Shown piece after piece: positions 10,028 through 14,389 of a stretch of DNA of 44,115 nucleotides. The number at the start of each line of letters is the position of its first letter. Within the stretch, counting starts at the first letter, position 1. The translations under genes and the position numbers were made by a program. The stretch is from UHGV virus genome UHGV-0177176; one strand, given 5' to 3'. The DNA comes from a virus. The notes below the pieces were generated by a model, which was given only the letters and a program-made list of their open reading frames with translations, did not search any database and was not told the DNA's origin.

Positions 10028-12037
10028 ATGGCCTTAGATAAACTCGTGAAAGTAGCACCGCCGGTGTTAGATCCGTTAGGCTTTACAACTCCGGAACAGT
10101 ATGGGTATGTACCCGGGGCTAGCTCAGCAGCAAACGCTACAAGTATTATGAGTGCATTGGCTGCTGCCAAAGCTCGGAAGTGTCCGTGTAAGTTTTCTGA
10201 GGGTGTGTATTCTAGCGATACCATCTCTCTGGATTATGCGGTGGCTGTGGAGGTAGCGGCAGGTGCCTACTTAGACTTTACCTTGATAATGCAAGGGCAG
10301 CACTTCAGTGCCTCTGCTACTGTAAACACGTCCTTAACGTGGGCAGATGTCCCTGTAGGCAGCACTAGCTTGGCTGGTAACTTCTCTGCATTCTCTGCAG
10401 GAGATGTTGTGGCGGTGAGTTTGAATGACTCTATCGGCGGCAGCGCCTCTCAGGGTAATGAAATTGGTACGGATATTATGATCGTAGCCAGTGCTGATAG
10501 CTCTAAGATTACGTTTACATCGGGTACTCGATACGCCTACACCAATCCCGTAGTACGGAAGCTGACAGCGGCTGTAAAACTGTCGGGGGTAGTGGAGGCA
10601 GGTACTTACAGTATTGCAGGGGATTACACCGCTAAGTTTGCTGCGGGGGACATCTTGAGGGTAGAGAATGTCGATGGGACGGATTCTGTTGAGGCACATA
10701 CCTCATACTTAGAGTTTGTTAAAGTGGTTAGTGTAAGTACCTCGGCCTTAGTGTTAGACCAAGCTCTATACTACACTCACGGGAGTCCGTGGTTAGTGAA
10801 GACTGGATGGGTGGAGGGTGCACATGTATCCGGTGGTGGTAGAATCAAACGTCTTGAGTTGAGGCAAGCAGTACACCCAGAGGTCCAGGACATTGACGTA
10901 GATCGGCTTATCTACGGCTTCACCTACGGCTTAGTTAGCTCCGGCATCTACGCTCGTGGTGTGAAAGAGCCTAGTACTATCAATCACACCTACTGCTTTG
11001 GGCGGATGCAAGTTCATAATATAAAGGCAGGTGGTAGTGTTGCAGTTACAGATAACGCCGCAATCAAGTTCATGTCCTGCCCGGGCGCTCAGATTAGTGG
11101 ACTTACAGTTACGAATACTGCGGCTACTGGTAGCCAGGGTGATTATGCCGTGTTCGTGGATGCTTTCTATACCCCGTACTATTCCTGGAACCGGGATATG
11201 CAGTTGCAGGGTGTAACTTGTGAGTCACCCCGTAGTCCTGTTACTCGAGGTGTGTGGTTCTATGGTGCTGCAGATAGTATGTTTAAGGACATAGTGGGTG
11301 CGCAGGTGTTCTTGCAAGGCTGCTACCGCACTATCCTGCGTGACGTGGTTACACCGCGCTGGCAGATGGAGTTACGGGACCTAGTGCACTGCACCGTTAA
11401 GGACTGCCACGTTAAGAACTTCACCGTTCTTGGCTGTGATAGTACCGAGTTTAGTATCCGCACAGATGGTCTAGGTACAGGTGCAAGCCTAAACATTGCA
11501 GGACGCTTCGGGGGCGGTACGCGCAACCCTGTTACTGGGGAGACGTATAACTTGGGAACAGGCAACCGCATCGGCATTCAAAGCGATAGTACTAGCAGTA
11601 GCGCTATCACCCTTAGTATCGCACAGCAGGACTCCTTCATTATTCTGAGTGGGTGCTGTGACCGTAGCACTGTTAATGCAAGCATCAAACTAGGTAACAA
11701 TGTAACGAATCCATTCATGGAGCCTAATAGCCTTCGCGGCGCAATTGATGCAGGTTCCGGCTGGGCTGGTCCAGTGCAGAAGGGTGGTATTGAATTCCGA
11801 GGTGATTACCGGGATGGTTATGTTCGGCTCAACGGTTATTACGTGTGGATGTCCAGCACTGGGCAGCTTCGAGCTAGCAGTACTAAACCCTCTTCAGACT
11901 CGCCGTCTGGATTCATCCCGATCGGGCCTAATACTGCTTCGGCGGTAAGTAATAGCTCTGGTACGGATGCAGCTAGTGTAGCTGTGAATGCGCTTATGGC
12001 GAGTCTGCGTGCTGCAGGTATCTTGAAGACCTCATAA
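10028..12037 (+). CDS. Tailspike 2: beta-helix receptor-binding protein / probable depolymerase without a gp17-like N-terminal adaptor
   Basis: 669-aa ORF with repetitive beta-strand-rich Gly/Ser/Thr/Val composition and PbH1-like segments (…ISGLTVTNTAATGSQGDYAVFVDA…). It is the last gene before the terminal non-coding region, as in KP34-like phages. SD GAGGG. Confidence 0.75.
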   Translation: MALDKLVKVAPPVLDPLGFTTPEQYGYVPGASSAANATSIMSALAAAKARKCPCKFSEGVYSSDTISLDYAVAVEVAAGAYLDFTLIMQGQHFSASATVNTSLTWADVPVGSTSLAGNFSAFSAGDVVAVSLNDSIGGSASQGNEIGTDIMIVASADSSKITFTSGTRYAYTNPVVRKLTAAVKLSGVVEAGTYSIAGDYTAKFAAGDILRVENVDGTDSVEAHTSYLEFVKVVSVSTSALVLDQALYYTHGSPWLVKTGWVEGAHVSGGGRIKRLELRQAVHPEVQDIDVDRLIYGFTYGLVSSGIYARGVKEPSTINHTYCFGRMQVHNIKAGGSVAVTDNAAIKFMSCPGAQISGLTVTNTAATGSQGDYAVFVDAFYTPYYSWNRDMQLQGVTCESPRSPVTRGVWFYGAADSMFKDIVGAQVFLQGCYRTILRDVVTPRWQMELRDLVHCTVKDCHVKNFTVLGCDSTEFSIRTDGLGTGASLNIAGRFGGGTRNPVTGETYNLGTGNRIGIQSDSTSSSAITLSIAQQDSFIILSGCCDRSTVNASIKLGNNVTNPFMEPNSLRGAIDAGSGWAGPVQKGGIEFRGDYRDGYVRLNGYYVWMSSTGQLRASSTKPSSDSPSGFIPIGPNTASAVSNSSGTDAASVAVNALMASLRAAGILKTS

Positions 12038-12187
12038 AGCATCTGGCAATCACAGGGGTATCCTTGGAGCGCTCTTGGGGTATCTCTAGGGTATCTCTGT
12101 AGGAGTTCATGGGCGCACGTCTATATCTGGACCTAAAATTTATTAGACTTACGCGAGGGCCTCCCTCACCCTCAGCGCGCCCAATTG

Positions 12188-12233
12188 CCCCCATAGGGGG
12201 GTGCCTAGGGAGAATTTAGGGGGGGGGCACCCC
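12188..12233. repeat. Compound palindrome: CCCCC-ATA-GGGGGG, plus the inverted repeat GGGGTGCC…GGCACCCC flanking a G9 homopolymer
   Basis: Read directly: cccccatagggggg at 12188-12201, GGGGTGCC at 12198-12205, GGCACCCC at 12226-12233, G9 at 12219-12227. Confidence 0.8.
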
Positions 12234-12600
12234 TAGTGGGCTGCTTGGGCCTGCTAGTGCGCACCAGCGGGCCTCAGTGGCTCTCTGCGCTGCGCTAGGG
12301 CTATCGCTAGTGCTACCCTACGGCTATCCCTGTGCGTTCACTGTGGGGCCGCTAGGGCGCTCTATGGGGCGCTGGAGGTGCGCTCTGCCTTGCTTATTTT
12401 GTGCGCCTCAGTGTGGCACCTAGTGGGGCCATAGTGGACCACCTAGTGCGCCGGCAGAGCGTCACAGTGCTATCACTAGTGCGCACTCGGCTATCCATTG
12501 GCTATCCTTAGCGCTTTACATTGTGCTTATTATATGCTACGCTGCGCGCTCCCCACTAGGGCGCACATCCACTATCCGCCACTATCCCTAGAGCTATCCC
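12233..12600. repeat. Array of dispersed short direct repeats (CTAGTG[C/G] at least 6 times; GCTATCC at least 6 times; CTAGGGCGC 2 times)
   Basis: CTAGTG occurs at about 12233, 12254, 12308, 12420, 12443, 12474 (and 12856). CTATCC occurs at about 12300, 12324, 12491, 12502, 12572, 12582, 12594. This is analogous to the short-repeat arrays in T7 terminal repeats. Confidence 0.6.
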
Positions 12601-12633
12601 TTCTATATTCTCTTTCATTCGGAAGCTAGTATG

Positions 12634-12656
12634 AAATGAAGTTACCGGAGTAGGAG
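12634..12656 (+). promoter_or_regulatory. Copy B of the conserved motif AAATGAAGTTACCGGAGTAGGA(G); candidate phage-RNAP promoter in an OL-like position
   Basis: Exact 22-mer shared with 32404-32425. The 16-nt core GTTACCGGAGTAGGAG is shared with 792-807. Confidence 0.4.
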
Positions 12657-12810
12657 GGTTTTAGGGAACTACATACACACTACACACTACTACTCACTAG
12701 TATCCCCTAGTAATGCCCTGTATTACGACCGTAGGGAGTAAGCATTACCTACATATTAACCGCATTGCTCCGTGTCCTTTCACTTCGTACGGACACTACG
12801 CACTGCCTTA

Positions 12811-12860
12811 TGTAGTATTGGTTAGTATTGGTTAGCATTGGTTAGTAGTGGCTAGTGCCA
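12811..12860. repeat. Tandem 10-bp repeat (GTTAGTATTG, about 5 units, degenerate at the 3' end)
   Basis: tgtagtattg|gttagtattg|gttagcattg|gttagtagtg|gctagtgcca. A 10-bp phase suggests an iteron-like or protein-binding array. Confidence 0.75.
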
Positions 12861-12889
12861 TCCATAGTGTGGTTATAAGTCCTTGCCCT

Positions 12890-12960
12890 GCTTACTCTTT
12901 TTGCTCTTAAGGATAAATATTTGCAAAAACTTTAAAATAATACTTGCTTCTTTTGGTCTG
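12890..12960. other. AT-rich island in an otherwise ~53% GC genome
   Basis: ctttttgctcttaaggataaatatttgcaaaaactttaaaataatacttgcttctttt. It lies adjacent to the 10-bp array and upstream of the sigma70-like promoters. Confidence 0.6.
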
Positions 12961-13075
12961 TTGGCGCTATAGTTCAATCACCGGGAGGCACTGAGGCGCT
13001 AACCGGGGTCGAGCCGGGAGGCTCTGCCGGATTAAAGCTAGATGGTGTGAAGGGTTAGATACTCAATAAAAAGAG

Positions 13076-13104
13076 TTGACACCGCGAAGAACATAAGCTA
13101 GATT
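13076..13104 (+). promoter_or_regulatory. Sigma70-like early promoter P1 (TTGACA, 17 nt spacer, TAGATT)
   Basis: Perfect -35 at 13076-13081, 17-nt spacer, -10 TAGATT at 13099-13104, A-rich sequence upstream. It lies ~410 nt before the first early gene, as with T7 A1-A3. Confidence 0.5.
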
Positions 13105-13218
13105 AAATCCAAGCATTACGGCAGGATAGTTGAAGACAGGCCGTTAACTAGGACACTTCCACGTGGCAAGCCACCACAGGGCGCTGTACCGTAACCAGAT
13201 GGCTTAAAAGTAAAACGC

Positions 13219-13247
13219 TTGACAAGTTCGGATTCACCTAGTAACTT
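13219..13247 (+). promoter_or_regulatory. Sigma70-like early promoter P2 (TTGACA, 17 nt spacer, TAACTT), weaker -10
   Basis: Perfect -35 at 13219-13224. The -10 matches at only 3/6 positions. Confidence 0.3.
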
Positions 13248-13520
13248 AGATGGCGAACGATGCAGTAAGCCGATTTGCGGGGAGGCCCAGTACCTTGACT
13301 GGTACGATAACGACCAATCCTAGATAATCAGTGTAGTAAAGAAGTAACATCAAGAGCTGAGATGACAAACGGCTGGGGCGCTGAGGCGCTGCCCCTTAAA
13401 AGAATAGCGCCGAACCCTGAGCCACAGGGTCCACGGTTGTGCAGTGGGTAACAAGGTTAAGAATTAGCGTCCTACTAAATTCTGCTAGGGCGTTAATCAT
13501 TAACTTTGATGAGGTACACA

Positions 13521-13736
13521 ATGAAATATCGTGATAAGTTAGCGCAACAATTTGCCGGGCTGGAGAAGTTATCAGGTGCGGAATTGAGAAAGCGTCGAGA
13601 TGCGTTGAATCGCGCCGGTTATATGCGGATGAAACAATCCGCTACATTCAGCACGAATGTACGCGGTAAAACCAAAACAAAGGGCAGTAGCAAGGCTCCG
13701 CAAGGTTGGTACACTGCCGGGCAGTTCGGACGCTAA
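13521..13736 (+). CDS. Early protein (71 aa, basic)
   Basis: SD GAGGT lies 5 nt upstream of the ATG at 13521 (the track ORF starts at a TTG at 13506). First gene of the early region. Confidence 0.6.
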   Translation: MKYRDKLAQQFAGLEKLSGAELRKRRDALNRAGYMRMKQSATFSTNVRGKTKTKGSSKAPQGWYTAGQFGR

Positions 13737-13745
13737 TTACAGCCT

Positions 13746-13769
13746 ATAGCATCCTATAGGGGGTGCTAT
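13746..13769 (+). promoter_or_regulatory. Intergenic RNA hairpin H1 (9-bp stem ATAGCATCC/GGGTGCTAT, loop TATAGG) with conserved 3' flank GCTATGTGAA; candidate RNase III site or attenuator
   Basis: Starts 10 nt after the stop of the first early gene. Near-identical element at 14528-14549 with a compensatory A-U to G-C change. Confidence 0.5.
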
Positions 13770-13813
13770 GTGAAGTAATTCGTTAAATAAACAACCAATA
13801 AATGAGGTGTATC

Positions 13814-14389
13814 ATGATTAACGCAACCAACAAAGTATTCAAATTAACCGCCGCTGGCAATATCCGCAAAGCACTGGGCGACGTAGTGGAAGTAAAACGC
13901 AATATTACTATCAGTGCGTTGTTCCACGGCCTGATTAGTAGCAACGTTTCTTGGGCGACTGATATGCAGCGCAGTGATGCCGCCGATTTTGATATGGTGC
14001 TGCGTACACTGCTGCCTATCAAGTTCAACAAAGAATCGGGCAAGTACGAGTTCCACGCTAAGAAGTGTTATGCATCGGCTGAGAAGCTGGGCATTGAACT
14101 GGACGCCGTGCGTCTGGATTATAAACAAGCTGACAAACAAGGCCGCGAAGAGATTGTTGCCAGCTTCTACAGCGCTTGCATGGCTCTGTACAACGCTGAA
14201 GCGGATAAGGTGAAGAATGATGCACTTGATGCCGATGCAATGCGTTTACAAGCTCTGGGGCGCGTTAAAAACGCCATCAAGAAGGCAAAAGAGACTGGCG
14301 TAAGCGATTCAGATTTGGTGAGTATGCTTATTAGTCAGGGCGTGGATGTACGCGCTGTGCTGGACGCAACGCTGAAGGTGCCAGCATGA
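13814..14389 (+). CDS. Early protein (191 aa), unknown function
   Basis: SD GAGGTG lies 5 nt upstream of the ATG at 13814. Protein-like composition. Confidence 0.7.
   Translation: MINATNKVFKLTAAGNIRKALGDVVEVKRNITISALFHGLISSNVSWATDMQRSDAADFDMVLRTLLPIKFNKESGKYEFHAKKCYASAEKLGIELDAVRLDYKQADKQGREEIVASFYSACMALYNAEADKVKNDALDADAMRLQALGRVKNAIKKAKETGVSDSDLVSMLISQGVDVRAVLDATLKVPA

Follow-up and report, generated by a model that had tools for sequence, protein, structure and literature searches.

Introduction

Short tandem repeats near the genome ends are a recognizable part of phage T7. In the T7 sequence record the terminal repeat (1-160) is followed by arrays of CCTAAAG units at 174-340, with a 13-bp period and TRF scores of 56-90. 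After these arrays come, in order, the phiOL promoter, an AT-rich stretch, the promoters A1, A2, and A3, and gene 0.3, and CCTAAAG heptamers also precede the right terminal repeat. Dunn and Studier reportedly named these repeat-flanking arrays SRL and SRR in 1983. To our knowledge they have never been given a function, so an analogy with them names a kind of element and not a mechanism.

Three other well-described arrangements resemble a phased repeat array beside an AT-rich segment: (i) replication origins, (ii) head-to-tail operator arrays, and (iii) promoters with an AT-rich UP element. In T7 the primary origin is found about 15% of the way into the genome, downstream of T7-polymerase promoters and not at the host promoters, and there is a secondary origin at the left end that uses the AT-rich stretch after phiOL, a layout that is visible in the T7 record. 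Proteins that assemble head-to-tail on direct repeats are represented by ParR on the 11-bp repeats of R1 parC, omega protein on its heptads, OmpR/PhoB on direct repeats, and the lambda Xis microfilament. In promoters of the rrnB P1 type, the region from -40 to -60 is contacted by the C-terminal domains of the RNA polymerase alpha subunits.

End formation in T7-like phages is poorly understood, according to a recent review (PMC13595956), and the paper describing the genus Kp34likevirus lists predicted sigma70 promoters with no mention of leader repeats (PMC4411677). Here we analyze a 10-bp tandem array and the AT-rich island next to it in UHGV virus genome UHGV-0177176; the window is the whole stretch of 44,115 nucleotides.

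Results

The array lies in the non-coding leader near the left genome end

A 2-kb query around the array matched 250 phage records at ~80-85% identity, nearly all of them Klebsiella Drulisvirus (Autographiviridae, Slopekvirinae), and judged by its sequence the window is a circularly permuted Drulisvirus genome (KP34-like, T7 supergroup) of ~44 kb. Records that begin at virion ends (KpV74, SAA231, AttikonH5, Kp_Pokalde_001, and fHeKpn01) start at query positions 164-167, which correspond to window positions 12163-12166; the physical left end therefore lies at about 12164, and the window is permuted. The putative terminal repeat (12164-12389, + strand) is present as a single copy in the permuted assembly, and a concatemer-junction-like motif covers 12379-12401 on the same strand. 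Relatives carry annotations for a terminal repeat (150-255 bp), for a "concatemer junction," for between two and four promoters of the host type, and for a small gene that comes first.

Late genes extend up to 12037 in the window and early genes begin at 13521, which places the array within a non-coding leader of ~1.3 kb, ~650 bp from the left end and ~420 bp past the end of the terminal repeat (~12389). The original prediction placed the array just 5' of the early promoters, and this context is correct; the promoters are of the host-polymerase type, and the region is non-coding and near the left end of the genome. No plausible small open reading frame was found (only frames of 40 aa or fewer, terminating in the array), and an Rfam search of 11900-13900 returned nothing beyond one chance-level match. 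The first coding sequence 3' of the promoter cluster (13521-13736, + strand) encodes a basic protein of 71 aa (phrog_6352), and a homologous CDS is annotated in all relatives.

None of the seven early open reading frames has a Pfam or PHROG function or a match to an initiator family. The second early gene (13802-14389, 195 aa, phrog_5277) is restricted to these phages. Its AlphaFold model is confident and mostly helical (pLDDT 84), with no relative in the PDB by sequence or by fold. The product is labeled "putative DNA-binding" in NNA-G4; we considered it as a candidate binder of the array and found the label unsupported.

Five phased 10-bp units form the strongest short-period repeat of the window

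The array consists of five head-to-tail 10-bp units with the consensus nTAGTAnTGG at 12811-12860 on the + strand. The units are (T)GTAGTATTG, GTTAGTATTG, GTTAGCATTG, GTTAGTAGTG, and GCTAGTGCCA; by eye, their TAG trinucleotides recur every 10 bp, at 12813, 12823, 12833, 12843, and 12853. TRF reports 12813-12856 with a period of 10, 4.4 copies, 88% matches, and a score of 67, which makes this the top short-period repeat of the whole window. Five in-phase 10-mers arranged head-to-tail had been predicted at this site; the TRF result and the TAG spacing bear this out, with the count corrected to 4.4 to 5 units. The self-match at a lag of 10 is 32/40, the best of any lag from 5 to 15 anywhere in the window. 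Over the same lags, 100 first-order Markov simulations gave a mean of 23.4 and a largest value of 26, and the array is far beyond chance.

All TAG...TGG units are on the + strand. The pattern TAGnnnTGG occurs in the leader only at 12813-12843, and the unit has no dispersed copies elsewhere in the genome. When we searched 185,579 prokaryotic genomes for two phased units, we found only scattered matches in unrelated taxa, at the level of chance (our own estimate of the expectation is ~280, for 16 specified bases in 596 Gb).

Two properties that a phased array might have were considered and rejected. Predicted static curvature at the array is unremarkable, at only the 79th-89th percentile in two wedge models (after Bolshoy/Trifonov and De Santis), and does not support a static bend there. 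The predicted curvature peaks lie at 12713-12720 and in the AT-rich patch. The other candidate was a six-frame stop array, in which TAG would pass through all frames because the repeat period is not a multiple of 3; as a general principle this was rejected, as the SP6 array has a period of 12 bp.

The array varies among relatives and is replaced by an HNH gene in some of them

We compared the locus across 36 IMG/VR loci and GenBank records, anchored on an invariant promoter sequence (P1, described below). Conservation of the phasing in relatives had been proposed as a check on the array, and this comparison provides it: the 10-bp phase is kept, as 3 to 6 strictly in-phase TAG units, in 23 of the 37 distinct sequences, and others carry degenerate versions. 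The unit types found in relatives are GTAGTATT(G/A)G, ATAGTGTTAG, and CTAG(A/T)(T/A)GTGG. Copy number ranges from 0 to 6, with the SU552A lineage degenerate. The last unit lies 74-157 bp from the -35 hexamer of P1, and these distances take all residues modulo 10, without a common helical phase.

Taken as a whole, the array has a pairwise identity to relatives of 0.58-0.74, which is not above that of 4-fold degenerate sites in two adjacent genes (0.61-0.73). This overall divergence appears to be about neutral, and the array may have no function at all. Four successive units, compared across 30 genomes, each show conservation of ~0.9 at TAG, at the T in position 8, and at GG, with positions 1, 5, and 7 free to vary; this pattern hints at some periodic sequence constraint, with the reservation that alignment of tandem repeats may inflate position-specific conservation, the aligner being free to choose which units it pairs.

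In RothJ, KMI6, and five IMG/VR genomes (L007, L015, L022, L023, and L037), a gene for an HNH endonuclease with its own ribosome-binding site stands in place of the array after ~1.3 units. The gene is free-standing, at 1467-1808 in the RothJ record (L041) and 1402-1794 in that of KMI6 (L042). At the junction, …TTTGTAGTATTGGTTC gives way to AACCTAAGGAG…ATG, and native sequence returns at CTAAGTATTTGCCC, just before a conserved box, so that the HNH gene replaces ~110 bp between GTAGTATTGGTTC and CTAAGTATTTGCCC. The leaders of RothJ and KMI6 have no such array elsewhere, and isolates with the replacement keep the promoters P1-P3 intact. RothJ and KMI6 form plaques with the array replaced; hence, the array is dispensable for plaque formation, and the HNH site is both a natural array deletion and a permissive insertion site.

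The AT-rich island adjoins an invariant sigma70-like promoter

AT content reaches 72% over 12890-12960 and 82% over the core at 12905-12944 in a genome of 51.4% GC, and no other 40-bp or 70-bp window of the genome is as rich in AT. An AT-rich patch had been predicted here at about 75% AT in a 53% GC genome. The patch is present and extreme for this genome; its AT content is 72%, and the GC content of the genome is 51%. An insertion of ~10 bp at about 12915-12924 (AAATATTTGC) is specific to this phage, and the island is longer than in relatives.

Immediately 3' of the island is a putative promoter that we call P1 (12944-12973, + strand), with a -35 hexamer TTGCTT at 12944-12949, an 18-nt spacer, a -10 hexamer TATAGT at 12968-12973, and a predicted start near 12980. 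The -35 hexamer has only 3/6 consensus matches, which is why a consensus scan missed P1. Both hexamers and the next 17-24 bp are invariant in 41 related sequences, the 3' half of the spacer varies, and an identical 30-mer is annotated as a promoter in KpV48. The sequence AAAAA(C/G)TTTAAAA just 5' of the -35 hexamer is near-invariant among relatives. In this phage AAAAACTTTAAAATAATAC adjoins the hexamer upstream; its A5, T3, and A4 tracts are conserved in relatives, and A/T tracts are present at about -40 to -60 of P1.

The core of the island (12905-12943, + strand, 82% AT) occupies about -36 to -75 of P1. Because it abuts an invariant sigma70-like promoter, we read it as a UP-like element of P1, and not as the unwinding element suggested earlier. 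In having an AT-rich island directly 5' of conserved -35 and -10 hexamers, the locus resembles promoters of the rrnB P1 type; it differs from them in its weak -35 hexamer (3/6), its 18-nt spacer, and an island lengthened by a phage-specific 10-bp insertion.

The region from 12876 to 13115, comprising an upstream box, the island, P1, the P1 leader, and a second promoter P2, is the best-conserved part of the leader, with column identities of 0.90-0.98. Pairwise identity to relatives is 0.86-0.92 over the P1-P2 block, against 0.58-0.74 for the array and 0.61-0.73 for 4-fold sites. The upstream box TAAGTCCTTGCCCTGCTTACTCTTTTTGCT (12876-12914, + strand) has column identities of 0.93-0.96 and forms the right-hand border of the HNH replacements. 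In KP-Rio/2015 and SU552A it bears the annotation of a weak sigma70 promoter, but the -10 of this promoter is not kept in relatives.

Two perfect TTGACA boxes had been noted at 13076 and 13219. They are at exactly these positions, both are annotated as host-type promoters in relatives, and we assign them to the next two predicted early promoters after P1. P2 (13076-13104, + strand, TTGACA-17-TAGATT) is annotated in KP-Rio/2015, SU552A, KpV74, and KpV48 and is among the promoters listed in PMC4411677. P3 (13219-13247, + strand, TTGACA-17-TAACTT), recognized from its sequence, is annotated in KP-Rio/2015 and KpV74.

Two further observations concern sequences around these promoters. The motif CTTGCTTNTTTTG occurs exactly twice in the genome, at 12389-12401, on the right boundary of the terminal repeat, and at 12943-12955, where it covers the -35 hexamer of P1; among 100 shuffles, a single one yielded as many as two matches. 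The copy at the terminal repeat boundary is annotated as "concatemer junction" in Kp_Pokalde_001, and the pair could be a pause signal of the phage polymerase reused at a promoter, or a coincidence. In the conserved transcribed leader 3' of P1 and P3, 10-mers resembling CCGGGAGGC occur three times (12980-12989, 13013-13022, and 13277-13286) and may be RNA structure or processing signals.

Other repeat families fill the leader

A sister array with the same 10-bp period (array A; 12675-12715, + strand) lies ~130 bp 5' of the array described above (array B). It is made of CACTAC and CACTAGTA units, shares the TAGTA core with array B, and is reported by TRF at 12675-12699 with a period of 10. In SU552A-type phages and several other relatives, array A is the dominant lag-10 array. 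In the leader between 12040 and 12900, the strand-specific motifs GSTATCY, TAGTA, CACTAS, and CTAG are 5- to 16-fold enriched, with CTAG at 19 per kb in the leader against 3 per kb; counted over 12040-12870, CTAG is ~6-fold enriched (16 in 831 bp, compared to 3.1 per kb elsewhere).

The motif with 16-fold leader enrichment is G(G/C)TATC(C/T), which occurs on the + strand only, both within the putative terminal repeat and on either side of it. Its sites are at 12057, 12079, and 12090, left of the terminal repeat, and at 12323, 12490, 12501, and 12593. This motif is a closer analogue of the heptamers that flank the T7 terminal repeat than the 10-bp array is. The gap between the terminal repeat and array B is occupied by such other repeat families (GSTATCY and CACTAS). 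We also note an inverted repeat, GTGTCC…GGACAC, at 12779-12803. In KP-Rio/2015 and NKA196 it reads GTGCCC…GGGCAC, with both arms changed and pairing kept; the SU552A lineage lacks it.

The layout parallels that of T7, T3, and SP6

We read the layouts of T7, T3, SP6, and phiKMV directly from their sequence records. T3 has arrays of CCTAAAGT units, SP6 has arrays of CTTAGTAACTAC units after its terminal repeat (L045 260-318), and phiKMV has only a weak array. In common with the T7, T3, and SP6 arrays, array B is non-coding and strand-specific, consists of imperfect, near-tandem short units, and sits between the terminal repeat and the host-polymerase promoters. What follows is also alike in these phages and in Drulisvirus, namely an AT-rich stretch, three sigma70 promoters, and the first gene. 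Since T7, T3, and SP6 have the same layout, the order of terminal repeat, short tandem arrays, AT-rich stretch, and host promoters can be regarded, from these records, as a family trait of which the array is the Drulisvirus version of one part.

The arrays differ in three respects. The period of array B is 10 bp, compared to 12-13 bp in the T7 group; ~420 bp separate array B from its terminal repeat, compared to 14 bp for the T7 arrays; and the array B unit is confined to the right-hand side of the terminal repeat, but T7 has its heptamers on both sides. The SP6 unit CTTAGTAACTAC shares a TTAGTA core with the array B unit GGTTAGTATT and the array A unit CACTAGTA, and T7 and T3 use CCTAAAG(T). 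There is a hint of a short shared core, yTA(A)AGT, across subfamilies.

Searches for origin elements

Consensus scans for DnaA, IHF, Fis, the 13-mer of DNA unwinding elements (DUE), GATC, and Chi found nothing in the array or the island. Allowing up to 1 mismatch, no DnaA box is present in 12040-13505, and one 13-mer-like site has 3 mismatches. The consensus for phage-polymerase promoters matches only at ~13743 and ~14525, with no match in 12040-13500, a scan that a divergent promoter class could escape. At the first of these sites (13742-13850), the phage-polymerase promoter AGCCTATAGCATCCTATAGGGGGTGCTATGTGAA precedes the 70-bp window that ranks second in AT content in the genome (73% AT). 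This segment is formally more like a T7-type origin than the array locus is, but gene 2 has its ribosome-binding site and start within it.

Plasmid oriV and the lambda origin have direct repeats beside an AT-rich segment, as does the Drulisvirus leader. The Drulisvirus units are 10 bp and not 17-22 bp, however, and no initiator gene, DnaA boxes, or 13-mer repeats were found with them. The AT-rich segment here appears to be part of a promoter, and natural isolates can do without the array.

Discussion

With moderate confidence, we favor a reading in which the array is a slippage-prone, non-essential leader repeat block of the T7 type, the AT-rich island is a UP-like part of P1, and the locus is not an origin. 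The island would recruit the C-terminal domains of the RNA polymerase alpha subunits to the first kilobase that enters the cell, with P2 and P3 following. The array would be one of the blocks in the repeat-rich DNA that separates the terminal repeat from the promoters, itself a counterpart of the short-repeat region of T7, T3, and SP6, and would grow, shrink, and drift by replication slippage. Weak selection may keep a periodic motif on one face of the helix (TAG...TGG once per turn), perhaps as a non-essential docking site or bendable tract for a protein that acts on the leading end of the genome.

A possible, though rather doubtful, alternative is that selection plays no part. The array would then be a neutral product of slippage, an irrelevant spacer in a tolerant leader, and its periodic conservation would reflect common ancestry and the aligner's choice of units. 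Much of the variation among relatives fits such a view: copy number runs from 0 to 6 with degenerate versions in the SU552A lineage, viable isolates carry an HNH gene in its place, identity is no higher than at 4-fold sites (0.58-0.74 against 0.61-0.73), and neither a known factor motif nor marked predicted curvature is present. What speaks against it is the pattern inside the units, where, across 30 genomes, four units in a row keep TAG, T8, and GG and let positions 1, 5, and 7 vary. In addition, the order of units is common to lineages (for example, ATAGTGTTAG is second), which indicates that those units evolved side by side, and compact T7-like genomes of several subfamilies still keep such arrays.

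Two readings assign the array a binding protein. In the first, which we consider unlikely, the TAG...TGG, TAGTA, CCTAAAG(T), and CTTAGTA arrays would all be versions of one cis element, and at each helical turn one unit would be occupied by a conserved protein of the T7 supergroup that deals with the leading end of the genome. The protein could be, for example, the small terminase, the primase-helicase, or a core protein that is ejected, and its role could be to protect the end, to position the final lagging-strand primer a short way inward of the terminal repeat, or to pass the DNA to host RNA polymerase. If true, this would give a testable function to the T7 short repeats, which have gone unexplained for four decades.

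In the second, the array would be an operator or enhancer on which a phage early protein or a host protein oligomerizes head-to-tail, one unit per turn, and tunes the early promoters. The binders we have in mind are winged-helix proteins of the OmpR/PhoB type, ribbon-helix-helix proteins, or Xis-like proteins. A phage-regulator array of this sort is possible on the sequence pattern, and IHF, Fis, or a phage regulator had been offered as an alternative in the original prediction. The array does resemble the described head-to-tail operator arrays in having several contiguous, directly oriented copies with one unit per turn. Direct repeats at exactly one helical turn with position-specific conservation (TAG, T8, and GG in four units), a location 95-135 bp 5' of the P1 -35 hexamer, and the sister array with a TAGTA core 130 bp further 5' all fit an operator. 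It differs from those arrays in that no cognate protein, fixed promoter position, or genome-wide motif was found. Among relatives neither the distance to P1 (74-157 bp) nor the helical phase is fixed, the array contains no IHF or Fis consensus, the early proteins match no DNA-binding family, and the rest of the genome makes no use of the motif. Viable isolates with intact P1-P3 lack the array. On this evidence we regard an operator function as improbable.

That the locus is a replication origin, as originally suggested, with an initiator bound to the phased repeats and the island melting beside them, is in our view very improbable: the repeats do adjoin the most AT-rich stretch of the genome, and the T7 secondary origin offers a left-end precedent, but an origin of the T7 type needs a phage-polymerase promoter just 5' and none is found in 12040-13500, DnaA boxes are absent there, the AT-rich core spans just 40 bp and can be put down to the conserved promoter P1 next to it, the units measure 10 bp compared to 17-22 bp in iterons, no initiator-like gene was recognized among the early open reading frames, and viable relatives have the array deleted, with an HNH gene in its place.

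Read as a T7-type leader repeat block followed by a UP-like promoter element, the locus allows the left end of Drulisvirus to be described in T7 terms, as a terminal repeat, a short-repeat tract, a UP-like element, and three host promoters. Drulisvirus phages are widely used candidates for Klebsiella therapy. Two reference genomes annotate a first promoter other than the one that we find most likely, and the natural HNH replacements mark the array as a safe, non-essential site for engineered insertions. If the weak periodic constraint on the array reflects protein binding, the natural copy-number and deletion variants of Drulisvirus would provide material for testing what the leader repeats of T7-type phages do.
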